DNA from: Malassezia furfur
Taxonomy: Eukaryota
Strand: one strand, 5' to 3'
NCBI GenBank assembly: GCA_052055015.1
Contig: JBQJIT010000030.1
DNA: 49,790 nucleotides
This document shows, one piece after another, positions 1-49,553 of this stretch. A program made the translations under genes and the position numbers. Positions within the stretch are counted from its first letter, which is position 1; the number at the start of each line of letters is the position of its first letter. Under the pieces are notes generated by a model. The model saw nothing but the letters and a program-made list of their open reading frames with translations. It was not told where the DNA came from and ran no database searches.

Positions 1-490
1 GACGAGTCCCTCGCACGTATCCAGCGCATGCACGAGGAGCGCGAATATGCCCGCATGACCGAACGCGCGCAGCCCTACACGGTGCGCGAGGCGCGCACGC
101 GCCCTGCGGCTGCCGCCGATGAGCAAGAGCGCCAGGCATGGCGCGAGTCACGCGAACAGATCAGCGTGATTGTCAACATCCTCCTGAGTGTCGCAGCCGT
201 CGCGACGGCCGCGTGGTGGGCCGCTGGGAATGCGTCGCCGATCTGGGTACGTGTCGCCGCTCACACAGAAAGTGTCCGTGTCACTTGGCTTGGCGCTGCT
301 TGTGGCAATTGCCGAGGTCGTGCTCTACTCGCGCTACTGGCACACGGTCACGGCGCGGCGCAAGCGCTACTCGAGCCGCGCGCACACTATGTATGAGCAG
401 CAGGCGGACGGCCGGCTGCGTCCGCGCCGGCCGCGCGACGTGCGGCGAGGATCAAATCCGCGATCTCTTCCACGCCGGTCCCCTTCTTAA
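1..490 (+). CDS. VMA12: V-ATPase ER assembly factor Vma12/Vph2 (TMEM199)-like, 5'-partial; 22-nt intron 247-268
   Basis: The pattern 'EEREYARMT...[12 protein letters not shown]...[21 protein letters not shown]' (two C-terminal TM helices) resembles Vma12. Removing GTACGT...CTCACACAG joins ORF 28..396 to ORF 188..490 in frame. Stop TAA at 488-490. Confidence 0.7.
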
Positions 491-1273
491 CACTTGCAAA
501 TACCGTAGGACCATTGTCACGCATCTTGTCTGCATCGCGACGCATCACCTCGAGCGATGCCCCGACGTGCTCCGCCAAGTCGATCTTGTTCACCACGAGC
601 AGATCGGACTGCGAGATGCCGGGGCCGCCCTTACGCGGCACCTTGTCACCGCCCGACACATCGATCACATACACGTGGAAGTCGGCGAGCTCCACGCTAA
701 AGGCCGCCGCAAGGTTGTCGCCGCCGCTCTCGACAAAGAGGAGCTGCGTGTCGTACTCTGCCTGCAGCTGCTCGAGCACCTCCATGTTGGCCGAGATGTC
801 CTCGCGGATCGCCGCATGCGGGCACCCACCCGTCTCCACGGCACGGATCCGGTTCGTGTCCTGCAGCGCCGCATTGCGCACGAGAAACTCTTGGTCCTCG
901 CGCGTGAAGATGTCGTTGGTCACCACGGCGATGTTGTACTTGTCCCGCAGCGTGCGGCATAGCGCCAGCAGCAGCGCCGTCTTACCCGATCCGACGGGTC
1001 TGTTGTGAGTCACAGCGCTCCAACCTACCCGCCAATTCCCACCGTGAACGCGCGCTCGTTCCAGTTGCGGTGCGAGAAGTTGGGGAGGTCACGCTCGCCA
1101 AACTTGCCCGGGTGCTCCATAATTTCGTGCGTGTGCCCATGCTCGTTGGCGGCGTGCGAGTGCGAGTGCGAGTGCGCGTGGTCGTGCGCATGGTCGTGTG
1201 CGTGCGTGTGTGCGCCGTCGGCGCCCGTGCGGGGGGCCCCGGACGCGGCCTTGGTAAACGGCACGGTGCTCAT
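387..1273 (-). CDS. ureG: Urease accessory GTPase UreG (fungal Ure7 type, His-rich N-terminus); 29-nt intron 1000-1028
   Basis: Splicing restores the P-loop GIGG|PVGSGKT. Also [30 protein letters not shown] and NKID motifs, plus an N-terminal [19 protein letters not shown] tract. Confidence 0.95.
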
Positions 1274-1311
1274 GGTTTTTACTAAAGGTATGGGGACGCT
1301 ATGGGCGGCCG

Positions 1312-2940
1312 TTATTCCCACTGCGGGCCGAGAATGTCGTAGCGCTTGCCGCGCACGGCCCACAGACCCCAGTTGGCCTTGACGGCGATACGCGTGTCGA
1401 AGTCGGCAATCGCCCACTGCTGGCTCGAGAAGGCATTCTCGCCGGGCGTCAGCAGCCAGTCGAACTCGCCGCTCACACCGTCGACCGACTCAAACGCGAG
1501 CACATCGCGCTCGACATCCGCGGGCGAGAAGCCCGAGATGTACAGCGGGCACCGCGTCGAAAGGATCTGGCCGAGCGACTGCGCCCACTCGCGCTGTGCC
1601 TGGACGATGGGCGCGGCCTGCAGCGAGGTAAAGTTGCCCTGTTTTGGGCGGAAGGCCATCACCTCGGGGTCCGGCTCCGCCGCGGGGGTGTCGCCGCCCG
1701 CCGGGTTCTTGGCGACCTCGCTCGGGCGGTAGCCCGAGTTGGGGATGGCTCCCTCGGTCGGCTCGGTCGACTCGCCCGGCACGGGCGCGTTCTTGGCATA
1801 GAAGGTGTCGCGCGCCGCCTGCATCTTGCGCTCGTCCTCGCGCTCCTCGGCGCGCAGCCGCGCGCTCTCCTCCACGGCGATCTCGCTGGGGAAGCCGAAC
1901 CCGGGCGCAAACGCAAAGAACACGTCCGTGTACGGGTCAAACGGCTCCAGGTACGGGTGCACGCGCTCGTATGTCGCCTGGATCGCCGTGAGCGTCAGGC
2001 CCGGCGACACGGCGATGCTGCGCGCCGGGAACGGGAAGTTGACCGCGCGCTCCTTGTACGACGGCGAGTTCCACGGGCTGGGCGCGTTCTTGGGCTGAAT
2101 GGGGGCCTCGGGACCGATCATCACGACGTGGATCGGCACCTTGGGGAAGTTGTATTCGATCTGGCGCCACACCTCGGGCGGGAGCGTGGCTTCGGCGCGT
2201 GCGCCCACGACAAAGATGCGCACCGGGTCCATGCTCGGCGTGGCGCCGAGCTCGGGGTGCAGCGTCTGGCGCAGCGGCGCCAAACTGCGCAGGCCCTCGT
2301 GGGTGAGGCGCGAGGAGCGCCGGGTGTACGGGCTGTTTTCGTGGAGCGCACCGACGATCGTCATAGGGAAGGTGAGCAGTTTCGAGACGTGGCGCTTGCT
2401 GCGCTCCGAGTCGATCGAGGGGAAGTTGCGCGTGTAGAAGAGCTGGTCCCAGCCCGACAGGTTGACCACCTCCTCGCTTGGCTGCTCGCGCGGGAGCTGG
2501 AACTCGGTCATGGGGCGTCCGCTACGCAGATCGTGTTCGTCCTCGTTGGCCTCGCGCAGGCGCGGCACGTACTGGGCATGCTCGGTGTCTTCCAACCACA
2601 TTTCGCGCGAGTAGTGCGTGGGCCAACCGCACTCGGGGCACTCGTAGTTGACCAGGCGGCGGATCCCGTACTTGGCCATGCTCACGGGGCACGGAGCAAG
2701 CGTGCGTATCCGCTCGCCGCGTGCGCGCATCGCGGGGATGGGCGATTCGGAGAGTTTGTGGAACAGGTCGTCCTGCTCGAGGATCGGCGGCCGCGCCGCG
2801 GTTGCGTCCGGGACCTTGGTCGGCGTGCGCCGCTTGAACAGACCAAACAGCGTGCGCGTCTGTTGCGCAAGGCGCGGCGCACCCGCGGGCGCAGCGCGGC
2901 AGCGCGCGAGCATCGGCGCCGAATGCGCAAGGGCTCGCAT
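1312..2940 (-). CDS. MSS51: Mitochondrial Mss51 (COX1 translation/assembly factor, Zn finger)
   Basis: DDLFHKLSESPIPAMRARG, YECPECGWPTH, LREANEDEHDLRSGR, GARAE and PFDPYTDVF motifs. Arg/Ala-rich presequence from ATG 2940. Confidence 0.9.
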   Translation of the reverse strand: MRALAHSAPMLARCRAAPAGAPRLAQQTRTLFGLFKRRTPTKVPDATAARPPILEQDDLFHKLSESPIPAMRARGERIRTLAPCPVSMAKYGIRRLVNYECPECGWPTHYSREMWLEDTEHAQYVPRLREANEDEHDLRSGRPMTEFQLPREQPSEEVVNLSGWDQLFYTRNFPSIDSERSKRHVSKLLTFPMTIVGALHENSPYTRRSSRLTHEGLRSLAPLRQTLHPELGATPSMDPVRIFVVGARAEATLPPEVWRQIEYNFPKVPIHVVMIGPEAPIQPKNAPSPWNSPSYKERAVNFPFPARSIAVSPGLTLTAIQATYERVHPYLEPFDPYTDVFFAFAPGFGFPSEIAVEESARLRAEEREDERKMQAARDTFYAKNAPVPGESTEPTEGAIPNSGYRPSEVAKNPAGGDTPAAEPDPEVMAFRPKQGNFTSLQAAPIVQAQREWAQSLGQILSTRCPLYISGFSPADVERDVLAFESVDGVSGEFDWLLTPGENAFSSQQWAIADFDTRIAVKANWGLWAVRGKRYDILGPQWE

Positions 2941-2993
2941 CGTGGAAGGCAGACGGGTTGCACGTGCTGACTCAGCCGAGCCTTTCGTCCACG

Positions 2994-3534
2994 ATGGAAG
3001 CCGCCGCGGCGCTGCGCAAGGCGCGGATCGACGCGCTGCGGCGCCTGCGCCAGGCCGAAGACGCGCATGACCAGCGCGCAATTGAAGAGAACGAGTTTGG
3101 GCGCGCGGTGAAGGCGTCGTTCCGGAGCAGTGTGCCGCCGCCCGGCGCGCTGTCGCAGCAGCCCACGGTGCTCGACACGCTCGAGCACGACATTGCCGGC
3201 CTGCAGGAGCGCGTCATTGCCGAGGACGAGGCCGAGCAGGAGAAGAAACTGGTACGTGTGTGGCGCACAGGCTGACCTCCAGGACCTCGCGGCGATCGCG
3301 CCCAAGCGGCCGAATTGGGACCTGCGCCGTGCATACGACCAGCGCGTCGCGCAGCTCGAGCGGCGGACCAAGCTCGCGATCCGCGCGCTGATCGGTGCGT
3401 AGCCGTGTACTGACGCAGTGGAGCGCGTGCGTGCGAGCCAGGGGACGAGCGACGATGCCGAGGCAGAGGCGACCGCGCGCCTGGTCGCCGAGGCAGGGGC
3501 GTCGGACGAGGAGGAGGAGGACGAGGAGGAGTAG
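2994..3534 (+). CDS. cwf18: Spliceosome-associated protein Cwf18/CCDC12; introns 3252-3282 (31 nt) and 3395-3418 (24 nt)
   Basis: The spliced product reads MEAAAALRKARIDALR...EKKL|DLAAIAPKRPNWDLRR...LERRTKLAIRALI|VERV..., which is the Cwf18 signature. Intron 2 carries an in-frame TAG. Confidence 0.85.
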
Positions 3535-9522: not shown

Positions 9523-10047
9523 CTATGTCGCACCACTTAGTGCCTGCTCACACACGCGGCGGATGCCGAGCTCGAGCAGCTGCAGTGCATGCACGTCCTC
9601 CGACGCCCGCGGCATTGAGCTCGTCCATGCCTCCGGTAGGTCAAGCGACAAGAAGACTTGCGGGATCCCCAGTTTCGCGGCTGCATCAGCACACACCACG
9701 TACCAATCCGCTTCGCCATCGCCAGCGCAATACCCTGTGTGTTGTACAACGTAGACCCCGTCGTCGCCTGTCGTCAGACACATGTAGCATACCTGCACAT
9801 TCCCGCTCCCGGCGCGGTTCATGGCGACGCTCCAGTCATGCGCAAGGCGCGCGGCAATCGCCGGCTCGGCACGGCCAGCCGCCTGCATCGCCGCACGCAC
9901 CTCGTCGTCCTCGCCATCACTATCATCTCCGAGTGATGCAGGCGCCACTCCGCACCACACCATCAGCGAGTGGTCCAGCACGGTGCACTGCACCGCAAAC
10001 GCGCCGACGGCATGCGGCACCCGCACCACGTAGGCCGCCGACTTCAT
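9523..10047 (-). CDS. Proteasome assembly chaperone 4 (PAC4/PSMG4/Poc4)-like; introns 9768-9792 (25 nt) and 9681-9703 (23 nt)
   Basis: The spliced product gives SLMVWCG...DWSVAM...ATTGSTLYNTQGIALAMAKRIAAKLGIPQVFLSLDLP, which resembles the PAC4 'LAxRLA...QVFVS' pattern. Both introns are GT..CTGAY..CAG. Confidence 0.65.
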   Translation of the reverse strand: MKSAAYVVRVPHAVGAFAVQCTVLDHSLMVWCGVAPASLGDDSDGEDDEVRAAMQAAGRAEPAIAARLAHDWSVAMNRAGSGNVQVCYMCLTTGDDGVYVVQHTGYCAGDGEADWYVVCADAAAKLGIPQVFLSLDLPEAWTSSMPRASEDVHALQLLELGIRRVCEQALSGAT

Positions 10048-10088: not shown

Positions 10089-11140
10089 ATGCTCGGAGTG
10101 CTTCGCATCGCGGCCGCGCGGCCGCTGCTGCGCGTGGGTGTGCGCTCGATGCACACGACCGCCGTGGCGCGCGCACAATCGCTTGGTCCGCAGAACCCTG
10201 CACCGGAGCGCGTCAAGCCGGCGTCGCCTGCGTACTTCACCACGAAGCCGTCGTACATCGACACCTTGCAGATGCTCGACCAGCTCACGCGCGAGGTCAA
10301 GCGCGAGCTGGAGCAGTCGTACATCCTCCCTCTCAACTCGAAGCCGCCCCCTCTTCCGCAAGGGCCGACGAATATTTGGATCACGCGCGAGGTGCTGCAC
10401 AGCCGCCTCGGTATCAACCTGCGCGCGTCGCAGTACCGCAGCGTCATTTCGCGCCTGACGCTCCTGCTGCGGTACCGCGCGCTGGTCCTGGAAAACTTTA
10501 CGGATGCAAAGGCTTCGGCGTTTGCGGAGCGCAGCACCACGCACCAGCGCGAGCTCGCGTCCAAGGTGGAAGAGGTGTTTGGCGCCTTTATGAGCACGCA
10601 CGGCAAGGCGCAGGATGCGCAGGAAAAGCGCACCACGCCGCTGCGCACCTCGACGCGGGGGTACATTGATGAGCAGGGCCGCGCGTACGCCCGCGGTCGC
10701 CGGAAGGAAAGCAGCGCACGCGTTTGGCTTGTGCCGGCCAAGGACGCCGAGACGACGCTCGGCGCGGTCCTGGTGAACGGCGCGCCGCTGAGCCAATACT
10801 TTACTCGCACCCAACACCGTGAGCAGGTTGTGTGGCCGCTCAAGCTCGCAGGCGTGCTGGGGCAGTACAATATCTTTGCACTGACGCGCGGCGGCGGGCA
10901 GTCGGGCCAGGCGGGTGCCATCGCGCACGGCATCGCCAATGCGCTCGTGGCCCAGCTCGCGAGCATGCCCGGTGACGAGGCAGCGACCGTGCACGAGCAC
11001 GTCAAGCACTTGTTGGCCAAAGGTTCGTCCTCCCACACACTCACACAGATGGCATTCTCAACCGCGACCCGCGTATGGTCGAGCGCAAGAAGCCGGGTCT
11101 GGCCAAGGCGCGCAAGGCATTCACCTGGGTCAAGCGTTAG
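10089..11140 (+). CDS. MRPS9: Mitochondrial ribosomal protein uS9m; 26-nt intron 11023-11048
   Basis: [12 protein letters not shown] and [15 protein letters not shown] motifs. Splicing restores the canonical C-terminus [25 protein letters not shown]. Confidence 0.93.
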
Positions 11141-12042: not shown

Positions 12043-12379
12043 CTAGTCGACGGTGACGCCCCGCTCGCGCAAATAGTCCTTGGCCGTCTTGATGTCCTGC
12101 GGTAAGTCAACGTCGCTACGCACAAGCAAGAGGTCCTCGTGCGCCTGAGGCACATCGTTGAAGTGGAAGATGCCCCAGCCCACGCTGAAGAGCAGGTACG
12201 CGCCCGTGCTCACCAAAACCCACCAGGGAAGCTGCGTTAGCAAAGTTTCGTACCGTCGGCAAGATCTCATCCGCGACCGACTTGGACAGCAGAGGAACTG
12301 GAAGGATCCCGAGCAAGAACACAAAGTAAATCAGGGCTGCAATGCCCGTAATAGCTGCAAAGCGCGTAGCCCGCGTCAT
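12043..12379 (-). CDS. DPM3: Dolichol-phosphate mannosyltransferase subunit 3; introns 12232-12253 (22 nt) and probably 12097-12123 (27 nt)
   Basis: The spliced product MTRATRF...ILPT|LPWWVLVSTGAYLLFSVGWGIFHFNDVPQAHEDLLL|DIKTAKDYLRERGVTVD matches the DPM3 pattern. Confidence 0.9.
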
Positions 12380-13828: not shown

Positions 13829-15221
13829 CTACATAGGCGGCCGCAGTACGGCCACATGGATACAGTGTCCATCGCCTTCCCACCCGAGCGGCGTGTCGCT
13901 GACCTCGCCAATGATGGCAGCGCCCTCTGTGGGTGCGGTGCCTCGTTCCTGGGTAGGGGCCACGCTCGAGTAGGCTTGTGGGCCCTTGGCAGCGTATGCG
14001 GCCCGGAACTTTTGCATCTGCATGCGCTCCAAAGTCTCGGCCACCCAGTTGACGTTGGTGAGTTGGGTCAGGTCATGCGCGCGGTGCGGCACCAGGCAGC
14101 GCTTGACGTCGGCGTACGTTGCCTCCGTGCCACGACACTCGCGGATCACGCGGGGATACGACGTCAGCACGGCCCCAGGCTGGTCTGTCCCGGAAGATGC
14201 AGAAGCAGGAGAGACGCTCGGCGCCCCCGGCGGAATGGGCTCGCCGTCGGCCGGCGCAAACGAGCAGTACATCCGCGTATCGAACACGCGGAACATGACG
14301 TCATCCACGCGCAGGAAAAAGCGTTGGAGCACAAGAAACTCTTGAGGCATCACACGCTGGGGTCAGAGGCGCACGTACCACTTTGACGTTGAGCATACTC
14401 GATCCATTGTCGCCTAGCTCATCCTCGTACAGCATCACGTCGTCGTAAAACAAGATGGGCTCACCGCTGTTGGGTCCCAAGCGTTCCACGGGGATCCGGT
14501 CGCGCGCCGGGTCCGTCGCAAGCTGAAAGACATCTTGCCACGGGTTGGCGCCTTGGTCGTGCGTACGGTCCGACAGCAACGGCGGCTGACTGGCGCCGGG
14601 CATGCCGGGCCATGTGTTGGAGTAGGTCCAGTCATACTTCTTGGCCTCGGTGATGTGCGACGCTGCGTCGTCGCTGTTTATCGCCGACTTGGCTGACGGC
14701 TGCAGGCGTCGCGATTCGCCCCACTCTTTGGCGTAAGCGACTTTGATCGCACTCTGCGAGGAGCGGCGGCGCTGCCGACCGTGTGGCGCCACAAGATCCA
14801 TGTCCACAGCGCAGTCAATACCCTTGTGGTGCACATCGGTGTGCACACCTTCGACACACTCCAGCGCACGGGTCGCATCGAAGCAGTAGCTAAAACCGCT
14901 CGGCGCATGCTGCAGCACAAGGGCGTTACGAGGGAACGGCATCTCTGGGGGCGTCACACCCAAGAGATCAGATAGTTGGTCTACTTCGACCGCATTGGCA
15001 ATGCTTCCATGCATCACAGTAATGGTCCATGGCCCAATTTGGATCCCCCGCTCCAAGACGCGGTCGGAGGGCGAGACGCCGGTCTCCGAGGCCACGCTCG
15101 ACTTCGGCGCACTGGCCTCATGCACGTTCTCAAATACGCGATGTTTCGGGCGTGCCTCCCTATCACCGGTTCCGCGACGCGCCCCCATGGACGGCATGAC
15201 TGACCCCGTCGGCCGCATCAT
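13829..15221 (-). CDS. TIP41: TIP41/TIPRL PP2A regulator (TOR pathway); 22-nt intron 14357-14378; start codon uncertain
   Basis: PEMPF, YDWTYS and PILFYDDVMLYEDELGDNGSSMLNVKV|RVMPQEFLVLQRFFLRVDDVMFRVFDTR motifs. Confidence 0.92.
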
Positions 15222-15582: not shown

Positions 15583-16382
15583 ATGAGCACTTCGAACAAG
15601 GCCTGCTGCACGCTTCCCCCGGTCCAGACGACCTAGTATGTTGTTCGAAATCCACTGGACTCGACTAACACATGCACAGCAAGCCCAAGGGCACGATCGA
15701 GAAGGTCGCTGGGATTGAGTCGTACGTCACCGGCGACAAGAGCTCCCAGACGGCGATTCTCTGCATCTACGACATCTTCGGTTTCTGGGACACCACCAAG
15801 CAGGGTGCTGACCTGCTTGCAGAGTCGATGAAGACCAAGGTCGTCATGCCCGACTTCTTGCGTGACCACCCGTGGCCGATCGACGCCTTCCCCCCTCGCG
15901 ACGAGGAGGAGGGCAAGAAGTTCGGTCAGTGGCTGGAGACCATCGGCAACGTCGGCGAGCGCGTCAAGGACGTGAAGTCGGTTGCCGAGGCGCTCAAGGC
16001 CGACGGCGTTAGCAAGCTAGGCCTGTACGGCTTCTGCTGGGGTGGCAAGGTCGCGAGCCAGCTGGCTGGTGCCAACTCGCCGTTCGCTGGTGTGGCCATG
16101 GTCCACCCTGCGTTCATTGCGCCTGAGGATGCCAAGAGCCTGACGGTCCCGGTGGCTTTCTTCCCGTCGAAGGACGAGCCGCAGAACGACGTGGACGGTT
16201 TCTGGAGCAACCTCAAGAGCGAGCACCCCGAGCTTGTGGAAAAGAGCCAGTTCAACCACTACAAGGAGAACCACCACGGTTTCGCGGCAGCGCGTGCCGA
16301 CCTTGAGGACAAGTCGAACTACTTTGCGTTCCAGGACGTCTACACGCGCCTGGCCGACTTTTTCTGCACGGTGTTCAAGTAG
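15583..16382 (+). CDS. Dienelactone hydrolase-family (Aim2-like) alpha/beta hydrolase, paralog 1; 44-nt intron 15636-15679
   Basis: N-terminal NKACCTLPPV..Y|KPKG, YDIFGF, nucleophile elbow GFCWGG, SKDE and HHGFAAARADL. Confidence 0.9.
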
Positions 16383-16902: not shown

Positions 16903-19378
16903 ATGGTGGGTAGCGCCCATACGATGCCGGTCCAGCCGGACCCGCGGCAGCGCGGGCAGGTGAAGCTGGAGGCATTGCGTGGAAGCTCGATGGACGTGTC
17001 AAGTCGCATCCAGATATACCATCTCCTTGGGCTTCTCTTGACCAAAACACTCGTCGCATCATCTGCCTGGCTGACACGCCAATGGCTACTGGTGCCGCAA
17101 TTCGACCTGGAGACATTCCAGCTTCAGATGCATGACATGCTGGGTGGCAATTCATTAGCATCCAAGGATGCGACCCAAGCGGCGTCAAAACTCGCCGTGC
17201 ACTCCCCCGCCAGCGTCTGGGCCGTGGCGACTATGGCGACGTCGCTCGCGTCGATCATCCTCATGCTGACCTTCCGCGTCTGGCGCTGGAAAATGAAATG
17301 GAACGAAAAGACTGCGCAGCACTTGGCTGTGCTCGCGGTGTTACTCTTCATACAGTTGCTACTCTGGCTTGTCGCCCTACGACACCTGGGTGCAACCACC
17401 GTGTTGATCTTTACCCAGTTCTGTGAGGTATGGGTGCGCGACTTGCAAATTGGCTGGCGGAATAACACCACGCGAAGCACGCCTGTGCTTTTCGCGCTGG
17501 GGCTCATGTTTTTGGTGTCGGCCATTTCGGGGTCGGCTGTGAGCATCCGTCGCCCTTTTGGTGATGTTCTGGACGAGTCGGCTATGGAGGCGCTGCGGAT
17601 CACCTCGCGGCTCCAAGACTCGATTTCGCTAGGCAACCTATGCAAGGGGTACCTGTCACTCTGTGCCTATGCGCTGCTTACGGTCGAGTCGGGCCGTGCT
17701 GCATTCGTTGCCTCTCGTGAGACCGGTGGAAGGCGCCGCGCCATTATTTTAGCCATTGCGTTGTCGGCAGTGGTGGTCCTCCCGCTATCTTGTGTCGGAG
17801 CTGTGCTGGGCTACAACATGCTTCCCGCTCCTCTCGTTCCTGGCCGACAACTCACTCCACAGGACGCCTTCGAAATCAGCCATCTGATTGCCTACTGGGT
17901 GTTGGCGGTGGGGCTTTTGGTGTGCGACACGCTGGTGACGCTCACGCTGGAGTCGTATGTGACACTCTACGCACATGCGGCGCATGCGTGGCCTATGGCC
18001 ATCGTGGCAGTGATGGCCATCGGGTTTGGTGTGTTTAGCATCAATTTGGGCTGGACACAACTACTTGCAGGGCTGTGCGTTGGGTTTGCACTGCACATGG
18101 TGCTGAAACGTTCGCCGTTGTTCCTTACCTCTTGGTATCGGAACCGTGCGTATAGCACCTCTGTCGAAGAGCAGCGTATGGCGACACAGGTGGCAGGCTC
18201 GGATACAACGGCCATCTCCGAGGCCATGCAGCTCAGTTACCAAGTGGCAGTTCAGCTCCGCGCCATGATTCGCGCGATTCTCGCGAACAGTGACTCGCGG
18301 CGTATTTTCCTTTTCTTGTGCCTCAACCTTGCATTCATGGGTGTGCAAATGCTCTGGGGCGTATGGACCAACTCATTGGGGCTGATCAGTGATGCGATCC
18401 ACATGTTCTTTGACTGTGCAGCCATTTTCATGGGCCTCATTGCCAGTGTGATGGCTTCCTGGAAGACAGACGATCGCTTCCACTATGGTTACAAGCGCGT
18501 CGAGACGCTGTCTGGCTTTGCGAATGGCATCTTCCTGGTGCTCATCAGCGTCTTTATCTTGTTTGAAGCCGTGCAGCGTATCATTGAACCACCCGTGATG
18601 AATAACATGACGCAGCTCTTGGTGGTAAGCACGCTGGGTTTGCTGGTTAATCTCTTCGGCATGTTTGCAATGGGTATGTGTCTCAACCTAACACAGGCCA
18701 TCATCATCATGGGCACAGCCATGGGCACAGCCATGGCCATGATCACGGGCATGATCACCATCATGGCCATAGCCATGGCCATGACCACAGCCATGATCAT
18801 CATCATCATGACCATGGTCATTCTCATAACATGCTGGGACTGTATTTGGTATGTTTTCCTACTAACCACAGCATGTCATGGCGGATACGCTCGGCTCTGT
18901 GGGCGTGATCATCAGTACGATCCTGATCCACTATTTCCACTGGACCGGATTCGATCCTATCGCCTCTCTCTTGATCGGGCTGATGATTCTGGGATCGGTG
19001 GTGCCGTTGGTCATTGACTGCGGCAAGATCCTATGCCTCGATTTAAGTTCGACCGATACCAGTGCTGTTGAACACGCGCTGGCGAAAGTGACTGCCATGC
19101 CCGGCGTTCGCAGTATCTCTGCTCCTCGCTTTTGGCCCCTGGACGGAGGGTCGCTGATTGGCTCAATTGTATGTTCTGCGCTCGGACCACTTACCGTGCA
19201 GCATGTCCAGACCGAGTCCGATACCCACGGAGAGCAAAGTGTTCACACCCACATTTCCTCGACAATGGATCCAGCAAAACTGGCACTGGAAGTTGAGGCC
19301 TTACTCTTGCACGAGATTCCTGGTCTGGAGTCCGTCACTGTACAGGTGAATACGCTGGACGAGGTCCATAGCCAATGA
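16903..19378 (+). CDS. MSC2: CDF-family ER/Golgi zinc transporter (Msc2/Cis4/ZnT5-like); introns 18674-18696, 18849-18871 (23 nt each) and probably 19169-19201 (33 nt)
   Basis: Long hydrophobic N-terminal region, then NSLGLISDAIHMFFDC, GYKRVETLSGFAN, a His-rich loop exon and NMLGLYL|HVMADTLGSVGVIIS. Start codon approximate. Confidence 0.88.
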
Positions 19379-19424: not shown

Positions 19425-20248
19425 ATGACGACATTGACTTCTCCTCAATGCTGCAAAATGCCACCGGTGGCCTCCGACTAGTGCGTGTGAATCCTAACAA
19501 AGTGTTCCTGTCGGTAAGACGGAAGAAGTCGCAGGCGTTCCATGCTATGTGACCGGCGACGCTAAAGCCACCAAGGCAATTGTAGGCATCTACGACATTT
19601 TCGGTCACCATCCGTCGACACAGCAAGGCGCGGATCTTCTGGCAGCTCTTACGGGATTCCGCATCTACATTCCCGATCTGTTTGAAGATGGCGGTTTGCC
19701 TCATCATATCATTCCTCCTGATACGCCTGAGAAAATGGAGACATTCATGAACTGTGCGTGTCGTCTTCTTACGCAGACCTTTCCGGTATCGCTAAGCCTG
19801 ACAAACACATCAAGAGCCTTACCGACATTGCCAATTACCTCAAGCAACATGGTGTGGAGAAGGTGGGCTTGTATGGACTCTGCTGGGGCTCGAAGCCAGG
19901 AGGTGCGTGGCCCGTGCTCACCCAGTTCTCGCTTGTGGAAAAGACACTCCTTATTCGGCTGCAGTCCTTATTCACCCTTCTCTGATTGTACCTGAAGATG
20001 CTAAGAGTCTGTCGGTTCCCATTGCATTGTTCACTACCATTGAGGAAGACAACGATGCAATGAAGACGTTCCAGAGTAACGTCCAAGCAAACCCTGTTAC
20101 ATCAAGCACATTTGTTTCGAAGCACTACGGAGACATCAACCATGGCTTTGCCGGTGCGCGTGCCAACTTTGAAGACCCCAAGCATGTCGAAAGATTCAAG
20201 GAAGTGTACGAGAATACTGCCAAGTTCTTCCTGCAACACTTGCAATAG
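19425..20248 (+). CDS. Dienelactone hydrolase-family protein, paralog 2; introns 19481-19502 (22 nt), 19754-19776 (23 nt), 19903-19925 (23 nt)
   Basis: Spliced product has QCCKMPPVASDY|VPVG, YDIFG, QQGADLLA, GLCWGS, PEDAKSLSVPIALF and NHGFAGARANF. It is clearly homologous to 15583-16382. Confidence 0.85.
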
Positions 20249-23386: not shown

Positions 23387-23413
23387 AATATAGGTGTTAA
23401 AAAATTAATTTCC

Positions 23414-26916: not shown

Positions 26917-29157
26917 ATGTCGGGCTTTGACCTGGGGCGTGTCTTCTCGACGCAAGTCTCTGCAGGCTCCGAGGTAGCTCAAGCTCCTGATGCGCCTGTT
27001 CAGAATGAGACGGCGCTGTTTGAATTTGTACAGCATTTCCGACTGGGCAATGAATACATCTACCGCGACCGGCTGCGCTCCAACCTACTCGTGAAGCAAT
27101 ACGTGCTCGAGGTGCTCCTCGAGCATGTTCAGATGTGGAGCCCAACGTTGGCACAGGCGCTGCGCGAGACACCCGCAGAGATCCTGCCGTTGGTATGTGA
27201 CGTCGCTAATGCAGTTTGAAGCCGCTGTGCGCCGGGCCGCGCGGCTCATTTTGTACCCTGTCGTGGCGGGTGCCGAACGCCCCGAGGCGCCGCTATGCCA
27301 GGTGCTGCTGCGCTCGACGGCGAATCTGATGGCAATGCGTGACTTGCATGCGGACAACATCTCGCATCTTGTGCGCGTACCCGGCATTGTAATCAGCGCG
27401 TCGATCCCCGCATCGCGTGTGACCAAGTTGCAGCTCATGTGTCGCGACTGCCATGCAGTGCGCTCGCAGGAGGTCACGTCTGGGTTCGGAGGGTTTGCGC
27501 TGCCTCGGCAGTGTGACGCGCCCAAGGTCGACTCGAGCATCAAGTGCAGTCTGGACCCATACGTGATTCTGCACGAGCGGTGCGAGTTTGTGGATGCGCA
27601 GACGCTCAAGCTGCAAGAGGCACCTGATATGGTGCCAGTTGGTGAGCTACCGCGGCACATGCTCCTCTCGGCGGACCGTGCACTAGTGGGACGCGTGGTA
27701 CCTGGCGCGCATATCATCGCGACGGGCATCTTCTCGACCTACACCGTGCAGCGGTCTAGCACGCAGCCGAATGCGGTTGCGCTGCGCACGCCTTACCTGC
27801 GTGTGTTGAGTGTCGAGGTGGATATGGGCGGTGCGGGGGGTCGCGGTGCGCCGCGCCTGTTTACGGCGGAGGAAGAGGACGAGTTTGGACGGATGGCCAA
27901 GATGCCCGACCTGTACAGCAAGTTTGCCGCGAGCATTGCGCCGAGTATCTATGGCAGCACAGACATAAAAAAGGCGGTGACCTGTCTGCTGTTTGGTGGC
28001 TCGAAAAAGGTGCTTCCGGACGGGATGCGCCTGCGTGGCGACATTAATGTGCTGCTGCTTGGTGACCCCGGTACGGCCAAGAGTCAGCTGCTCAAGTTTG
28101 CGGAGAAAGTGTCGCCGATCGCCGTGTATACCTCTGGAAAAGGCAGTAGTGCTGCTGGTTTGACCGCCTCGGTGCAGCGCGACGCCAACACGGGCGAATT
28201 CTTCCTGGAGGCCGGCGCAATGGTACTAGCTGACGGCGGGATTGTGTGCATCGATGAGTTCGACAAGATGCGTGACGAGGACCGCGTGGCCATCCACGAG
28301 GCGATGGAGCAGCAGACTATCTCGATCGCGAAAGCGGGCATCACCACCGTGCTCAACTGCCGTACGTCAGTGCTGGCGGCAGCAAACCCTGTGTGGGGTC
28401 GGTACGACGACATGAAATCGCCGGGCGAGAACATCGACTTCCAGACGACCATTTTGAGCCGATTCGACATGATCTTCATCGTGAAGGACGAGCACGACGA
28501 GTCGCGCGACCGGACGATTGCGCGACATGTCATTGGCATCCACATGAACGGCGCCGGCGCCGATGAGGACCAGGATGCTGAGGGCGAAATCGACTTGGAC
28601 CGGATGAAACGCTACATTGCCTACTGCAAGGCGCGGTGTGCGCCGCGGCTTACGCCCGAGGCGGCCGACAAGCTGTCGAGCCACTTTGTTGCGATCCGTA
28701 AGCACGTCGCGCAGGTCGAGCGCGAGCAGGACGAGCGGTCGACCATCGCGATCACTGTGCGTCAGCTGGAGGCGATCATCCGCATCAGCGAGGCGGTGGC
28801 CAAGGTGACGCTGAGCCCCGTCGCGACCGAGGAGCACGTCGACGAGGCGATCCGCCTGTTCCGCTTCAGTACGCTGAATGCGGTGGAGAGCGGCAACATT
28901 GAGGGGATGACGCGCGGTGAGCTGCAGGAAGAGGTGCAGCGATTGGAGCGCGAGATTATGCGGCGCCTGCCGCTCGGGTGGACGACGTCGTACGCGCGCT
29001 TGCGCAACGAGTTTGTGGACAAGCAGCGCTACTCCTTCGTACGTATATTCTCGCTGACCAGCAGCACGCGTTTGAGCGCACGCTGTACATCCTCGAGAAG
29101 CGCGACGCGATCCGCTTCTCGAACCAGCACAAGAGTGTCACGCGGATGGGTGTTTGA
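26917..29157 (+). CDS. MCM5: Replicative helicase subunit Mcm5; introns 27193-27214 (22 nt), 29039-29061 (23 nt)
   Basis: MSGFD start, [45 protein letters not shown] and [11 protein letters not shown] motifs. Confidence 0.95.
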
Positions 29158-33300: not shown

Positions 33301-33610
33301 CAGCGCATACACGAGATCAAAGTTGATGTTCTCGTCCGGGATCGACGGGCTCGACGAGAGCTCTTCGTCGTATTCGTCATCGTACTCTTCCTCATCCTCC
33401 ATTTCCTCGTTGTACATGCCGTCGTCCAGGAGCTCATCCTCCTGAGCCTCGTAGCCGTGCTGGTCGTCGCCCTCGCCCCCACTGGGGTCGGCAAACTCTT
33501 GCGCCTGCGCACGCGACATATCCATGCTGCGCTCGAGCTCCGCCTCAAACTGCGTAAGCGCACACACATACCTGATCATCGGGCTCATACTCGGGCTGGA
33601 TCTCCTCCAT
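30301..33610 (-). CDS. tea4: Tea4/Bud14-like cell-end marker (SH3, RVxF-like PP1 motif, Ras-association domain); 22-nt intron 33550-33571
   Basis: INFDLVYALHTFVATVDGQA...LLDDSNSYWWLVRV...GYIPAENIETPYERLARLNKHRN, KRAVLF, and an RA-like VRVFAG...ATFKTVLLN...LVRQAMQRF. First exon is MEEIQPEYEPDDQ. Confidence 0.85.
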
Positions 33611-39140: not shown

Positions 39141-39520
39141 ATGGTGGCCGACAAGCAGAGCCGCATGCTCTTTGTGAAGAACCTTAGTTACAGCACAAAG
39201 GGTGCGTTATATTGCTGACCATCAGGCGAGGACCTCTATGAGCTCTTTGGTCGGTACGGCGCCATTCGTCAAATCCGAATTGGAAACACTCAGCAGACGC
39301 GGGGTACCGCGTACATTGTGTTCGAAGAAATGGGCGACGCCAAGCGGGCGCTCACCAGCTTGAACGGTTTCCACTTGCAGGATCGATACATTATTGGTAA
39401 GCATCATGCGCTCATGCAGTCTTGTACCATGACCCTGGCAAACTCTCGGGACGCGGCACATTGTCGCAGCGCGAAGAAGAATTGCTCCGTGCGAAGCAGC
39501 AATATGGAATGACGGACTAA
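39141..39520 (+). CDS. SF3B6: U2 snRNP SF3b subunit 6 (p14/SF3B14), RRM protein; introns 39202-39225 (24 nt), 39397-39419 (23 nt)
   Basis: Spliced product MVADKQSRMLFVKNLSYSTKG|EDLYELFGRYGAIRQIRIGNTQQTRGTAYIVFEEMGDAKRALTSLNGFHLQDRYIIV|LYH...AKQQYGMTD*. Only partly present in the ORF track. Confidence 0.92.
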
Positions 39521-39544: not shown

Positions 39545-41024
39545 TTATACCTGTCGCAGTGACACGCGCGCGTACGGCACATTGCACGCACTTGTTTTTG
39601 GAGATCCACGACTCCGTGCATACCAACCACGTTCGCTGGCTGCAACGAAGACGCCGGGCAGCTCAAGAACACCATTCGGATGTTGCCGCGCATAGGGCGC
39701 GGCGGGATCAGGCGACACTGATGCATGCCCTTCAATGGGGTATGCAAGAAACACACAGCTGGAAGAGCTTTGCGCTTCTTGGATCGTGTTGGGACTTGTG
39801 AGGGCAGGTCGGAAAATCTGTGCCCATCGCTTCCCATTCGCATCCGAGGCACCTGCTGCGGGCCCCAGCTCCGTCTCCGTGTCAAGACTGAGTGTCCCAC
39901 GCATTGGGTGCCCGGACAATACTTTAGCCATCAAGGACGGCATAGCATGCTTATCGTCATAGATACCCACGTAAAACTCCTCGTCTTTCTGCACAACGCT
40001 GGACAACTCTCGGACCTGCCCAGCTTCCATTTGTTTGGACGTCGTCGTAGCAGGAGCACGCTTGAGAATAATACGCAAAAACTGTTGCGCAGCATTGTAG
40101 TTGTCAAGCGAGGAAATGATGTTGCCTCGCGCACTGGTGAGCTCGAGGCGAGGTCCGATCGGCTCGAGTTGTTCGTACATGCGCTCCATCGAGGTACGAG
40201 GAGGAGAAGGATCGCACAACGCAATCCCAACCGCTCCATCGTCAAACACGCGCCTGGGCTGCTGCGGTGTGTCGTAAAAGAGAGTATGTTCCCGACCAGT
40301 TTCAAATGGTGTTAACGTCGCGTTCGTGCCCATAATGTTGGCATCAGGGAAGCGTGCATCCAAGCCTTCAATCAGACCTTGAGGATAAGCATCTGTCGCA
40401 AATAGTAACGTATGAACGTGTGCAGGGCTGTGGGTAAGTTGATTTCACTCACTTGACACCGGTGAGATTATCGGGGATAGTCAGGTCGATATTTTCTTTT
40501 CCCCACAAAGAGCGCCAGTCCGACGTCTCGTCAAGTCGGTCGGATCGTGCAGCGGTTCCTTGCTTCCAAAGATCTTTTTGGGAGGCCCATCGCCCTACAG
40601 TGATGCGGGCGGTTCCGGGGATCGTCGAGCGGAACACAATGCCTCGGTCAGCAGGGATTGCCGCTAGCGACACAGCATGTAGAGGTGTATTTGGATGGTC
40701 GCGACCGACAAGTGATGAGGGAATCTTCGTTGATAAAACACCTACGCGTGATTGCGCTGGTGCCTCATAGAGCATATCCACGATTTTGGACAAGACTGGG
40801 CGAGGGAGGCTCTTGCTCAGCGCAAACATCAGAAGAGGTGGGGCATCTTCTGTCCAAGAAGCAAGCTTTTCGGACAATGCGGGTATTAGTGCCTCTGGGT
40901 TCAATGCTGTAAGCGTTGTAATATGCCCTGGTCTTGAGACTGCATGGGTCGCAAACGTGCGACACACCGATCGTGAGAACATGCGCCGAAGCAAAGGTTG
41001 ACACGAACCTTGCACCCTCCACAT
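39545..41024 (-). CDS. Putative FIST-domain-like mitochondrial protein; 25-nt intron 40428-40452; start 41024 or 40982
   Basis: The intron joins ORFs 40449..41024 and 39545..40363. FRSTIPG...VGRW, LLFATD..PQGL..GL...FP, TPFETGREHTLF, GAVGIAL and ARGNIISSLD resemble fungal FIST-like proteins (family call from memory). Confidence 0.55.
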
Positions 41025-43210: not shown

Positions 43211-44405
43211 ATGGCGTCTGAGAAGAAGCGCGTGTTGATCCCCGGCGGTGCCGGGTACATTGGTAGCCATGTGGCGCTTACCGTGCTGAACACACGCAAG
43301 TTTAAGGTGACGAGTGCGTATCCCATTGGCTGACGCAGTCCTCGACAACTTCCATAACTCGAAGAAGGAAGCGGTGCGTCGCGTCGAGAAGCTTGCGCTG
43401 GATGAGCTTCCGGCCGATGCGAGCGAGCAGGACAAGGCCGACTGCAAGATCGAGCTGATCGAGGCCGACCTGCGCGACAGTGCGGCGATCGACAAGATCT
43501 TTGCGTCGCACACGGGTGCGGAGAAGTTCTATGCTGTGATCCTCATCGGTGCGCTCAAGGCTGTCGGCGAGTCGGGCGAGATTCCGATCGACTACTTTAA
43601 CGTGAACGTCGGCGGCACGCTCAACTTGCTCACTGCCATGGACAAGCACGACACGAAGCGCCTCGTGTACTCCTCGTCGGCCACGGTGTACGGCGCCCCG
43701 GAGACGATCCCCATTCCGGAGAGCACGCCGATGGACCCGCACAGCCCGTACGGCCACACGAAGCAGATCTGCGAGATGATCATCCGCGACGTATGTGCCG
43801 CGCATCCCGAATGGCGTGCGATTGCGCTGCGCTACTTCAAGTACGTCCCCCGCGAAACTAACGCAGCCCTGCCGGCGCCCACCCCTCCGGCTACATTGGC
43901 GAGGACCCGCGCGGAAAGCCGGGCAACCTGCTCCCGCTCCTGGCACACATGGCTGTGGGCAAGTACCGCGAGCCGGGCCTCAAGGTGTTCGGCAACGACT
44001 ACCCCACTCCCGACGGCACGTGCGTGCGTGACTACATCCACATCCTCGACCTAGCCGAGGGCCACCTGAATGCAATGGTCGCGCTCGACGACGACTCCAA
44101 GTTTGTGAACCAGGAGAAGGACGGCAAGTACCGCGCGTTCAACCTCGGCAAGGGTGTCGGTATGAGCGTGCTCAACATGATCGAAGCCATGCGCAAGGTC
44201 ACTGGCTACGACTACCCCTACGAGATCGTCGGCCGCCGCCCGGGTGATGTGCCGGACCTTACCGCGGACCCGACGCTCGCTGAAAAGGAGCTCGGTTTCA
44301 AGGCGACGCGCTCGTTGGACGACATGGTACGTTTGTCCCGCACTGACCCAGTCGCGCGACCTGTGGAACTGGCAAAAGAACCACCCCAACGGGTACGACT
44401 CGTAG
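43211..44405 (+). CDS. UDP-glucose 4-epimerase (GalE/Uge); introns 43314-43338, 43841-43866, 44327-44351
   Basis: [49 protein letters not shown] and RRPGD motifs. Spliced C-terminus [15 protein letters not shown]. No mutarotase fusion. Confidence 0.95.
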
Positions 44406-46585: not shown

Positions 46586-46809
46586 GGCTAGATTGGGCCG
46601 GGTGCTGAATCAGTGAACATGAGACATACCGCGCCCCATCGCTCTTGGAAGAGGCAGCAGACGATTGACTGCTCCGCCTCGGCGCAGTGGATGAGGACAT
46701 GCCGTCCATACAACGTCGTCACGCCGTATCGAGTCCACCAAACGCAGGGCCAACGAGCGGCCGTTGCCTGTTGGCCAAATTAGGCACGGCAATGTCAACT
46801 ACCGCCGTG

Positions 46810-47773: not shown

Positions 47774-47865
47774 TGAAAGTACCGCGGAGCAGGCGCGTCG
47801 TGCCGCCTCCACATGTGTTGCTCTGTGGAATTTAAACCGATCGTCCGACGTCTATCTACCCAAGG

Positions 47866-47918: not shown

Positions 47919-47956
47919 TTTCGTTCCGGATAACTTTCTTTCGAGAAGCTCCAAGC

Positions 47957-48607
47957 ATGGATACGTATTTCTCAAATGCATCACACCATGGCTTGGGCGC
48001 GGATACAAGTGCGGCCTCCTTGTCATTTGGCGAGAAACGCAAACATGCTGATGATGAGATCGATGATGCCAACCTCGATAATCTTGCCGAGTATTGTCGA
48101 CAGGTGCGTACCTACGCTGGAACTGACCGGCAGAGTGTGGTTCCTCGTACAGAGTCTCAGAGAAAGGACGGCGACGGTCAAGTCCAATTTTATCCACTTC
48201 CTCCCGAGTTGAACCAAGCTGTCCTAAACTCGCTTGGTGCCGGCACTGCCAGACACTCCGAGAGTGAGGCGAGTCCTTCCTTGTTCACGAGGAACCTTGG
48301 TACCACGGATGCAAGATCGGCTCAGTCAAGCCCAGGCCTCTTACAACCAAGTATCTCGAGTGATATGCCTTTCTCGGGCAGAACCAACCCATCCGACTCG
48401 TGCTCCAACAGCGACTGTATGGAGGAAGAGGTTCACACCCCGCGCGAAGCATCTACATCACACGGGCCCCACTGCAAGAGCATTCCACAACTGTCTGTGC
48501 GGAATTATGGAGGAACAGCGTCGCAACTGTGGGCGTTGTGTCCCGACTGTGGTGCATTCTCCAAAGTGCACGAAGACAAACCCGTGCTCTTGTGTTACTC
48601 TCCATAA
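47957..48607 (+). CDS. Hypothetical protein with NLS-like KRKH and a C-terminal H-x2-H/C...C-x2-C putative Zn-binding motif; possible 30-nt intron 48104-48133
   Basis: ATG 47957. GEKRKHADDE near the N-terminus and HGPHCKSIPQL...QLWALCPDCGAFSKV at the C-terminus. Confidence 0.6.
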   Translation: MDTYFSNASHHGLGADTSAASLSFGEKRKHADDEIDDANLDNLAEYCRQVRTYAGTDRQSVVPRTESQRKDGDGQVQFYPLPPELNQAVLNSLGAGTARHSESEASPSLFTRNLGTTDARSAQSSPGLLQPSISSDMPFSGRTNPSDSCSNSDCMEEEVHTPREASTSHGPHCKSIPQLSVRNYGGTASQLWALCPDCGAFSKVHEDKPVLLCYSP

Positions 48608-48965
48608 AAAATTGTATATAAGCATCTCGCGATGCTAGTCATGCGCGAGCAGTGATGTCCATCCAAGGAATCTCTCACCCCCACCTCACGACGAACTGAC
48701 CAACTCTCATCAACACTACACAATGCCGCCCGGAGCAGCCACCACGCTGTGCACATGGGGAAATCAGTATCACATTGCTTTTTATTGGCATAGCAAATTG
48801 GGTAAAACCGTAGAGACGATCGTGCTCTGCAATACTGAACAGGTGCCAAAAATGCCTGGCCCATAGAATCAAATCCTTGGGTCATGCAGTACTCAGCCAT
48901 CAGCGTTGGCGACGCTGAAGACCTAACGTCTTGTTGCAAGCGTAATATCTGTCGTAACAGATAAT

Positions 48966-49553
48966 TTACTCCTCAGGGATCTCGATCGTGCCCTCGTCGA
49001 TGCCCTCAATAACATCGTGGGGGGCCTGCTTCTCGACCGTGCAGCCAACGCTCTGGCAGGTGCCGAGGATCTCCTTCACGGTGCTCGCGAGAGTGCGGCC
49101 GAACGACTTGAAGCGCATCGTCCGCGCAATGTTAATGATCTCGTCGAGAGGGATGTTGCCGCTGTGCACAATGTTCTTGGTCTTCTTGCGGTCACGCGGG
49201 GGCTCTGCGAAGTGTAAGCAACCATGCAAACCAATTCAATACATACCCTTCAGAGCCTTGATGACGAGCGACGACGCCGAAGGGACGACGGCCACCTGAG
49301 CCTGACGGTTCTGCACCGTCAGCTGGATGGTGACACGGAGACCCTTCCAGTCGCTCGACGCCTTCGCGATGTCCTCACCGACCTTCTTGGGGGCCTGTTA
49401 ATAGTTAGTAACTGGTTCTTTGACCAAGCGTGCAATACATACCAGACCCAGCGGGCCGATCTTGGGGGCAAGCGCAGAGGGAGCGCCGACCTCACCACCG
49501 GTGGTACGGAGGTAGATGATCTTCACTTCGTTAGGGTCGATCTTCGGCGCCAT
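48966..49553 (-). CDS. RPL12: 60S ribosomal protein L12 (uL11); introns 49395-49442 (48 nt), 49205-49246 (42 nt)
   Basis: [48 protein letters not shown]...[31 protein letters not shown]...[14 protein letters not shown]. Confidence 0.97.

Follow-up and report, generated by a model that had tools for sequence, protein, structure and literature searches.

Micro-introns close to a lower length edge in a stretch of the Malassezia furfur genome

A stretch of Malassezia furfur DNA of 49,790 nucleotides (nt) on contig JBQJIT010000030.1 (hereafter "the window") carries 40 candidate GT-AG introns between positions 247 and 49442, and the lengths of these introns crowd against a lower edge: the minimum is 21 nt, the mode 22, the median 24 and the mean 26.4 nt (n=40). 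The reading that we favour, and regard as likely, is that these are ordinary U2-type GT-AG introns which have shrunk to near the smallest size accepted, with the edge being the sum of two spacing minima. Very short Malassezia introns are a published phenomenon, so that the present gain is a sharper description; the additions are a modular geometry of the introns, the two-spacing reading of the edge and a probable 21-nt in-frame intron in the DCAF7/WDR68 gene.

The 40 candidates comprise one intron of 21 nt, nine of 22, seven of 23, four of 24, seven of 25, two of 26 and ten of more than 26 nt (27, 29, 30, 31, 32, 33, 35, 42, 44 and 48 nt, one each). The initial annotation of this DNA had counted 39 introns; its bins of 23, 24, 26 and more than 26 nt (7, 4, 2 and 10) were recovered exactly, while its ten introns of 22 nt became nine, its six of 25 nt became seven and its empty 21-nt bin received one. 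The three 22-nt strings that it had quoted each occur once, at 12232-12253 (-) in DPM3, 14357-14378 (-) in TIP41 and 27193-27214 (+) in MCM5. Moreover, its description of a mode standing beside the minimum, with an abrupt left edge, was borne out in the window, whereas the claim of a hard 22-nt floor with nothing shorter gave way to the probable 21-nt intron at 25461-25481 (+). GT and AG ends are present in 40 of 40 candidates (GC-AG and AT-AC introns were not searched for). By class, 29 are required (i.e., a frame shift or an in-frame stop results without their removal), two form a compensating pair, three lie at gene ends, and six are in frame and stop-free. Lengths that are multiples of three number 10/40 and stop-free ones among such lengths 6/40, both near the naive expectation, with n being small and the detection of this class biased.

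All 40 introns follow one plan: a GTRYGT donor, a spacer, a YTNAY box, an interval of 0-3 nt (up to 7 in a few long introns) and YAG. The donors are GTATGT (11), GTACGT (9), GTGCGT (8) and others (12), the first three accounting for 28/40, and a GTRNGT-like donor is found in 35/40; the acceptors are CAG (36), AAG (2), GAG (1) and TAG (1). The YTNAY box, present in 40/40, most often reads CTGAC (9) or CTAAC (9), followed by CTCAC (5), CTTAC (5), CTGAT (4) and other forms. Its A, the putative branch point, lies 4-11 nt from the 3' end: 5 nt in 20 introns, 6 in nine, 7 in five, 4 in one and 8-11 in five. The interval between box and YAG is exactly 1 nt in 22/40 and 0-3 nt in 35/40, and is therefore too short to hold a pyrimidine tract; with its 57% of pyrimidine the spacer is not a tract either, in agreement with the earlier statement that a polypyrimidine tract is missing. 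In the second RasGEF intron the scoring picks an upstream CTAAC, but a CTCAC whose A is at position 19, 5 nt from the end, fits the plan better. With that CTCAC taken, the distance from the 5' splice site to the A has a minimum of 16 nt (TIP41 and the 21-nt DCAF7 intron) and a mode of 17 (10 cases). Among the nine 22-nt introns the A is at position 17 in eight and at 16 in one (TIP41), and 5 nt from the 3' end in eight and 6 nt in one, just as the initial annotation had put it (position 16-17, 5-6 nt from the end). The spacer has a minimum of 6 nt and, for introns up to 26 nt, accounts for length almost one to one. GC content is ~52% in the introns and ~61% in the window.

This anatomy suggests an intron built of four modules: i) a yeast-like 5' splice site, GTRYGT; ii) a free spacer of at least 6 nt; iii) the YTNAY box (CTRAC-like, with the branch A as its fourth base); and iv) YAG. 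As just 0-3 nt separate the box from the YAG, the branch site and the 3' splice site would act as one fused signal that has no polypyrimidine tract, and length would vary almost only via the spacer. The edge would then be composed of at least 16 nt from the 5' splice site to the A plus at least 4-5 nt from the A to the 3' junction, and these minima sum to 20-21 nt, compared with the observed minimum of 21. In terms of general spliceosome structure, the two spacings could correspond to crowding of U1/U6 on the 5' site and of U2/SF3b on the branch helix, and compaction pressure would push introns against such a limit. We infer that the edge is a physical limit of the spliceosome of this lineage under compaction pressure, and that it applies genome-wide.

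Comparison with known proteins argues that the segments are introns. An open frame demands removal in 29 of the 40 candidates, ~25 junctions are colinear with Pfam profiles or ortholog alignments, and every explicit spliced model gave a clean open reading frame (ORF). Pfam matches continue over the junctions in TIP41 (profile positions 121|122), DPM3 (38|40), cwf18 (93|95), MCM5_C (31|32) and Ribosomal_L11_N (25|27). The four-intron RasGEF model aligns with the annotated Malassezia protein P0141 over 273 amino acids (aa) with one 1-aa gap, down to the common C-terminus, and the C-terminal tail shared with P0141 lies in a frame other than the read-through frame. The three-intron model of the second dienelactone-hydrolase (DLH) gene aligns with the same protein over 242 aa without gaps. 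Likewise, the junctions of gene J (23597-25122; 3/3) and DCAF7 (3/3) are colinear with orthologs; for gene J, a representative homologue search supplied 15 relatives, and a search restricted to longer proteins returned no homologue of it. Two in-frame segments stand out by the excess that read-through would produce: in DPM3, reading through 12097-12123 gives 60 residues for 51 profile positions, the 9-aa excess equalling 27 nt, and in RasGEF, reading through 22781-22804 gives 139 aa for 131 positions, the 8-aa excess equalling 24 nt. At the third intron of the CDF transporter gene, the ZnT7 and SLC30A10 alignments end at the residue just before the intron, and the third printed alignment ends at residue 90. 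The ORF at 9523-10047 is open also when unspliced, because its intron pair (25 and 23 nt) totals 48 nt. Overall, the comparative evidence supports the segments as real micro-introns, and from it we infer their actual excision.

At a few junctions the exact limits have an alternative. The second MCM5 intron ends in a tandem acceptor, CAGCAG, such that a 26-nt form (to 29064) is equally scored, keeps the frame and differs by one Gln; for the RA/SH3 intron a nested 18-nt in-frame reading from another ATG is also possible.

The lower edge was examined by a frame-blind scan of both strands for GT...AG segments of 14-60 nt, using donor, branch-box and acceptor matrices trained on the 29 required introns, no length term, a cut-off score of at least 8, and 40 dinucleotide-preserving shuffles as control. 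The numbers observed (shuffle mean and maximum in brackets) were 1 at 14-20 nt (0.93; 6), 2 at 21 nt (0.28; 2), 22 at 22-26 nt (0.98; 3), 7 at 27-35 nt (1.4; 3) and 4 at 36-60 nt (3.9; 10). Signal enrichment over shuffles was ~22-fold at 22-26 nt, and at 14-20 nt the window held no excess over shuffles at this cut-off, the sole match below 21 nt being nested within the RA/SH3 intron. The steep left edge is real in the window.

Several shorter candidates were considered and rejected: i) a frame-compatible 19-nt alternative for the first cwf18 intron (3252-3270) leaves four residues unmatched by Pfam; ii) a 21-nt signal at 24243-24263 in gene J (score 8.6) is coding, its residues being kept in orthologs; iii) a 21-nt match at 28362-28382 in MCM5 lacks a branch box with an A and falls within the P-loop domain; and iv) for nested signals in TIP41 (18 nt), the second MCM5 intron (19 nt), the third epimerase (GalE) intron (21 nt) and at 9681-9696 (16 nt), the length difference from the curated intron breaks the frame.

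The shortest candidate, at 25461-25481 (+) in DCAF7/WDR68, reads GTATGT-ggtctg-CTCAT-c-CAG and has all three splice signals intact. Its seven codons are missing exactly in the annotated proteins P0005, P0008 and P0011, the orthologs without them being those of Malassezia sp. CBS 17886, M. cuniculi, M. pachydermatis and all aligned Ustilaginales, and the spliced residue count between the conserved flanks equals that of the annotated orthologs. Extra residues occur at the same site in other protein calls: seven poorly conserved ones in P0001 (95% identical) and P0002 (85%), for both of which the calling method is not recorded, more than seven in P0006 and ~23 in P0009. Three of the seven residues differ between the M. 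furfur element and the relative that is 95% identical overall. We read the extra residues in the relatives' calls as probable intron read-through, with an intron position that would be conserved and a length that would vary. The spacings of the element are those of its neighbours in the window: 16 nt from the 5' splice site to the A, as in the frame-required TIP41 intron, and 5 nt from the A to the 3' end, the modal value. On these comparisons 25461-25481 is a probable 21-nt intron, and the initial annotation probably missed it because the protein is restored whether or not this in-frame segment is removed.

A competing account of the same element would keep the floor at 22 nt and take the 21-nt segment as a former intron that became too short for this limit and persists as seven additional codons, tolerated because they are in frame and stop-free. 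Such an element gives a viable protein when retained, three related taxa have a 7-residue element here in their protein calls, and nine introns of 22 nt stand against this single case of 21. Yet the three intact signals score 8.6, within the range of required introns, both spacings match those of other introns, the change of three in seven residues against a 95% relative looks like non-coding drift, and the spliced product is exactly colinear with annotated orthologs, so that we consider exonisation unlikely, if deserving of some weight. The wider proposal of the initial annotation, a hard steric limit of 22 nt with a lariat loop of ~16 nt enabled by a remodelled U1/U2AF/SF3b machinery, draws on the sharp left edge with its mode at 22 and on an interval between branch box and AG that is too short for a pyrimidine tract. 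Against it stand the probable 21-nt intron and component minima that allow 20-21 nt. Furthermore, Yarrowia has fused branch and 3' sites, and no remodelled machine is claimed for it in the available text of PMC2911113, while Stentor, according to the parts of PMC9505925 available, splices introns of 15-16 nt, with the branch A at position 10-11, by a nearly complete spliceosome that includes SF3B6, U2AF1 and U2AF2; a loop of ~16 nt as a steric limit is accordingly not universal. The p14/SF3B6 exon of the window also aligns without gaps to human p14 (56/56 over the middle exon, E 3.5e-19), which speaks for an apparently ordinary SF3b14a/p14, although this alignment is by itself neither for nor against remodelling. 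We regard a remodelled machinery at a 22-nt limit as improbable.

About equally improbable in our view is that no real floor exists, and that the edge is a sampling or detection artefact of one 50-kb window with shorter introns elsewhere. Only 40 introns are at hand, short in-frame introns are invisible to ORF logic, and short signals do lie outside the gene models (19 nt at 38798-38816 and 21 nt at 47411-47431); but the length-agnostic scan had no excess at 14-20 nt against its 22-fold excess at 22-26 nt, and the nested shorter alternatives are frame-incompatible or have poorer donors. That the segments are sequencing or assembly indels, pseudogene lesions or programmed frameshift sites can be set aside as almost negligible. 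Nothing was seen that would favour such a view: all 40 have GT-AG ends, a donor and a branch box at fixed spacing, their enrichment is far above that of shuffles, and the orthologous DCAF7 site carries other lengths (~24 and 69 nt). Turning back to the favoured reading, of ordinary introns pressed against two spacing minima, several points weigh against it. Part of the excess from 22 nt upwards follows from the design of the scan, since the matrices came from the window's own introns, and the absence of short matches is the only independent evidence from the scan. In-frame introns below 21 nt with weak signals would escape all the tests used; 0/40 below 21 nt gives a 95% upper bound of ~7% for shorter introns, and 40 introns say little about a genome with several thousand. 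Splice signals and ORF logic are the sole evidence for 11 of the 40 candidates, among which those at 46605-46629 and 48104-48133 are possible introns, and genuine coding regions, too, contain signal-only matches (24243-24263 in gene J, score 8.6; 13270-13291 in HAT1, 7.5). Finally, the excision of any single segment, above all the 21-nt one, is deduced from its sequence.

That Malassezia introns are short, which the initial annotation had taken as known, is indeed published. For M. sympodialis, 5350 introns have a mean of 30 bp, 99% of them being supported by RNA sequencing (Zhu et al. 2017, PMC5389616, Table 2), and their length distribution is given as a cumulative plot (supplementary Fig. 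S8 of the same paper). M. restricta introns have a median of 30 and a mean of 37 (PMC9241646, Table 1); minimum intron lengths of 20 and 15 were set for its annotation (PMC6473144), and the minimum intron sizes of Malassezia annotators have already been 10-20 nt (PMC5389616, PMC9241646, PMC6473144). A review likewise speaks of Malassezia genes with "very short introns" (PMC7426719). These are objects of the same kind in the same genus, with a mean of 30 in M. sympodialis and a median of 30 in M. restricta compared with a median of 24 nt here; the window belongs to another Malassezia species, its best named protein matches being 67-73% identical. In the available text of the literature found, including PMC3560662 and PMC8476143, no minimum length, branch geometry or floor is stated for Malassezia.

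Further afield, the closest likeness in the plan of the 3' end is with Yarrowia lipolytica, whose introns are much longer overall. Its branch and 3' motifs lie on average one nucleotide apart (Mekouar et al. 2010, PMC2911113), comparable to the box-to-YAG interval of exactly 1 nt in 22/40 introns here, while its frequent 5' motif is GTGAGT, a consensus contrasted with GTATGT in the part of that paper available. As Yarrowia is an ascomycete, the likeness would be convergent. The same source cites a deficit of stop-free 3n introns in Paramecium and others. Ciliates resemble the window in having narrow length distributions pressed on the minimum, with the branch A a few nt from the 3' end: Paramecium introns are ~25 nt (PMC8997360, PMC5014332, in the parts available), and in the 15-nt introns of Stentor an A at position 10 is 5 nt from the end, the modal value here. 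The Stentor loop, however, is 10-11 nt compared with 16-17 here, and the Malassezia edge would therefore be lineage-specific, not a universal limit. Furthermore, ciliate introns are AT-rich with a weak branch consensus, whereas those of the window have ~52% GC and a strong YTNAY box. A survey of animal introns from 2026 gives ciliates, Microsporidia and dicyemids as its ultra-short exceptions and gives myxozoans a median of 22 bp (PMC13644364); "Malassezia" has 0 occurrences in the available text of that survey, and the genus is not among the exceptions named there. Microsporidia, dicyemids and myxozoans are alike in their median or modal lengths in the low 20s and their compacted genomes, and unlike in being parasites with reduced splice-site motifs, as far as the same text describes them, the motifs being strong here.

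Table 1. Candidate introns in the window, with coordinates, strand, length and the evidence bearing on each
Gene and intron	Coordinates	Strand	Length (nt)	Evidence and remarks
Vma12-like	247..268	+	22	joins two frames, clean ORF; Vma12 profile to ~103 before, 107-134 after
UreG/CobW-type GTPase	1000..1028	-	29	joins two long ORFs; cobW profile position 8 is the first residue after the intron
cwf18 intron 1	3252..3282	+	31	Pfam cwf18 2-93 on exon 1, 95-131 from exon 2's first residue
cwf18 intron 2	3395..3418	+	24	in-frame stop inside; clean ORF after removal
159-aa ORF (9523-10047)	9768..9792	-	25	signals; coding-score frame shift exactly between the paired introns
159-aa ORF (9523-10047)	9681..9703	-	23	signals; coding-score frame shift exactly between the paired introns
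Mitochondrial ribosomal protein S9	11023..11048	+	26	Ribosomal_S9 1-81 on exon 1; 93-121 in the next frame after
DPM3 intron 1	12232..12253	-	22	Pfam DPM3 1-38 before, 40-90 after
DPM3 intron 2	12097..12123	-	27	probable; in frame, stop-free; signal score 8.8; Pfam length excess
TIP41	14357..14378	-	22	Pfam TIP41 1-121 to exon 1's last residue, 122-170 from exon 2's first
DLH gene 1	15636..15679	+	44	short ATG exon joined to DLH ORF; clean model
CDF gene intron 1	18674..18696	+	23	frame-required; clean ORF
CDF gene intron 2	18849..18871	+	23	frame-required; Cation_efflux 142-198 and PDB ZnT7 align from the first residue after
CDF gene intron 3	19169..19201	+	33	probable; in frame, stop-free; signal score 10.0; found by later signal scan
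DLH gene 2 intron 1	19481..19502	+	22	AAG acceptor; gapless P0141 alignment
DLH gene 2 intron 2	19754..19776	+	23	gapless P0141 alignment
DLH gene 2 intron 3	19903..19925	+	23	gapless P0141 alignment
RasGEF intron 1	22666..22690	+	25	P0141 alignment; RasGEF profile 1-50 before, 48/50-180 after
RasGEF intron 2	22781..22804	+	24	in frame, stop-free; removal leaves no gap versus ortholog
RasGEF intron 3	23161..23192	+	32	ortholog alignment continuous over the junction
RasGEF intron 4	23307..23328	+	22	C-terminal tail common to P0141 and P0142 only in the spliced frame
Gene J intron a	25047..25070	-	24	in frame; GAG acceptor; P0128-P0130 and P0133 have the spliced residue order, no extra 8 aa
Gene J intron b	24967..24988	-	22	stop on read-through; junction colinear with orthologs
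Gene J intron c	24113..24134	-	22	AAG acceptor; joins two ORFs; full-length P0126-P0131 align across
DCAF7/WDR68 intron 1	25223..25257	+	35	TAG acceptor; spliced N-terminus colinear with annotated P0005
DCAF7/WDR68 intron 2	25316..25340	+	25	colinear with P0005
DCAF7/WDR68 intron 3	25461..25481	+	21	probable; in frame, stop-free; full signals, score 8.6; ortholog comparison
MCM5 intron 1	27193..27214	+	22	frame-required; MCM_N 5-64 to exon 1's last residue, MCM_OB in the next frame
MCM5 intron 2	29039..29061	+	23	MCM5_C 1-31 before, 32-59 from the first residue after
RA/SH3, after first exon	33550..33571	-	22	probable; clean model, signal score 10.0, exon 1 coding score positive
SF3b14a/p14 (SF3B6) intron 1	39202..39225	+	24	in-frame stop inside; clean model
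SF3b14a/p14 (SF3B6) intron 2	39397..39419	+	23	frame-required; GTAAGC donor, CTCAT box; PDB p14 match (56/56) to exon 2's last codon
FIST-domain gene	40428..40452	-	25	joins 176-aa and 293-aa ORFs
UDP-glucose-4-epimerase-like intron 1	43314..43338	+	25	frame-required; clean model; epimerase profile on both sides
UDP-glucose-4-epimerase-like intron 2	43841..43866	+	26	frame-required; profile to 170 on the preceding exon's last residue, from 174 after
UDP-glucose-4-epimerase-like intron 3	44327..44351	+	25	frame-required; clean model
Gene T (44420-46706), near 5' end	46605..46629	-	25	possible; signals, score 8.9; downstream ORF with its own ATG
Weak RPA-interacting-like ORF	48104..48133	+	30	possible; in frame, stop-free; signals, score 9.0
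RPL12 intron 1	49395..49442	-	48	Ribosomal_L11_N 1-25 before, 27-58 after
RPL12 intron 2	49205..49246	-	42	frame-required; Ribosomal_L11 17-69 in the next exon

The window is a gene-dense chromosome stretch, with ~25 of its ~30 genes named by Pfam when stop-to-stop ORFs of at least 110 aa (n=184) and exon fragments were scanned. The genes named encode Vma12, UreG, MSS51, Cwf18, PI4-kinase, two mitochondrial ribosomal proteins, DPM3, HAT1, TIP41, two dienelactone hydrolases, a CDF transporter, a Cdc25-type RasGEF, DCAF7/WDR68, MCM5, prohibitin, an RA/SH3 protein, chitin synthase, SF3b14a/p14, a FIST protein, PrpF, an epimerase and RPL12. In a protein search with the DCAF7 ORF, the best named matches were M. 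vespertilionis (73%), Malassezia sp. CBS 17886 (72%) and M. nana (70%), followed by M. cuniculi and M. pachydermatis (both 67%), with the relative P0001 at 95%; the identity of 67-73% to the best named matches agrees with the genus assigned earlier. A metagenome scan with MCM5 gave 80 loci, the best with at most 65% identity, and among them no close Malassezia relative. No snRNA gene was found in the window. Two spliceosome genes each carry two micro-introns, namely SF3b14a/p14 (SF3B6) at 39141-39520 (+), with introns of 24 and 23 nt, and Cwf18 at 2994-3534 (+), with introns of 31 and 24 nt.

Gene models were first obtained by dynamic programming. The first model drew on codon statistics and GT...AG ends, with a flat prior for lengths of 8-300 nt, and without any donor information it recovered 16 short introns, all with donors of the form GT[AGT]NG[TA]; the three such models together recovered short introns without a length prior. 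As a final annotation these models were rejected and they served as a first pass, because they produced false long introns and merged neighbouring genes, mostly in GC-rich antisense frames and in the GC-poor stretch at 20-25 kb. The false long introns led to gene-by-gene curation by hand, based on three-frame ORF maps, Pfam on exon fragments, ortholog alignments and explicit spliced models. Further signals in the neighbourhood of genes were recorded as follows. Those at 13270-13291 (22 nt) and 13326-13371 (46 nt) in HAT1 and at 18361-18389 in the CDF gene would break Pfam-supported ORFs and were taken as chance. Other signal candidates are 40134-40178 (45 nt, FIST) and 41081-41140 (60 nt, MoaC-like). 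Beyond coding sequence, splice-like signals lie at 41692-41720 (-; 29 nt), just past the PrpF stop, and at 38798-38816 (+; 19 nt), between genes and with the p14 start ~325 nt downstream; both could be introns of untranslated regions or chance matches.

Base composition forms a smooth GC valley at ~17000-26000, falling from ~0.62 to 0.46 at 22-24 kb and rising back, and crossing coding genes; no long AT-rich intergenic core was seen in it. Inside the valley, at 18674-25481, lie 16 of the 40 introns, and its codon usage deviates enough for one codon model to fail. The long GC-rich genes for PI4K, chitin synthase, MSS51 and HAT1 have zero introns. The two paralogous DLH genes, 3 kb apart at 15583-16382 (+) and 19425-20248 (+), differ in their intron sets, one having a single intron of 44 nt and the other three (22, 23 and 23 nt). 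Without its 22-nt intron, the Vma12-like ORF does not end until 488-490 and shares ~100 nt with the 3' part of the convergent UreG gene, whose stop is at 387-389; where the Vma12-like gene really ends is uncertain, since its last ~45 residues extend beyond the Pfam domain. At 23421-23506 (-) ARAGORN called a tRNA-SeC (anticodon TCA) and the general tRNA model of Rfam gave 45.6 bits; in the alignment a 15-nt insert follows the anticodon loop, the loop reading TTGTCA, and the selenocysteine call was rejected as an artefact, the locus being most simply a tRNA-Asp(GTC) with a short tRNA intron. The region 46800-48950, where GC falls to ~0.52, has no confident gene model: it holds a 276-aa ORF (+) with a weak RPA_interact_C match (E 0.01) and a 262-aa ORF (-) that has no Pfam match and contains an in-frame 21-nt splice-like signal at 47411-47431.

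Introns of this size bear on the annotation of related genomes, as default minimum intron sizes in gene finders and read mappers will mis-annotate such genomes, an effect seen in P0001, P0002, P0136, P0137 and P0141. Micro-introns are read through in the protein calls P0001, P0002, P0136 and P0137, and P0141 (Malassezia sp. CBS 17886), a 1338-aa model that corresponds to 19425-23386 (+) and has a dienelactone-hydrolase domain ahead of RasGEF, seems to be a fusion of two neighbouring genes in the public annotation.

Limits on intron size inform the way in which U1, U2/SF3b and the factors of the 3' splice site can share a single substrate, and a yeast open to culture and transformation whose introns combine a sharp edge at 21-22 nt with a fused branch/3' signal would offer a practical test bed. 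Tentatively, and with more doubt than confidence, we suggest that Malassezia may splice thousands of introns by a fixed minimal geometry, with a 16-17-nt lariat loop and an acceptor 4-5 nt after the A; U1 and U2/SF3b could then not take the neighbouring places that they have in the known A complex, and tract binding of the U2AF65 type would not be possible. If so, in-frame introns of 21 nt would lie precisely where splicing tips over into exonisation, and no system would be better suited than a culturable, transformable basidiomycete for experiments on the handling of micro-introns by a near-complete spliceosome.

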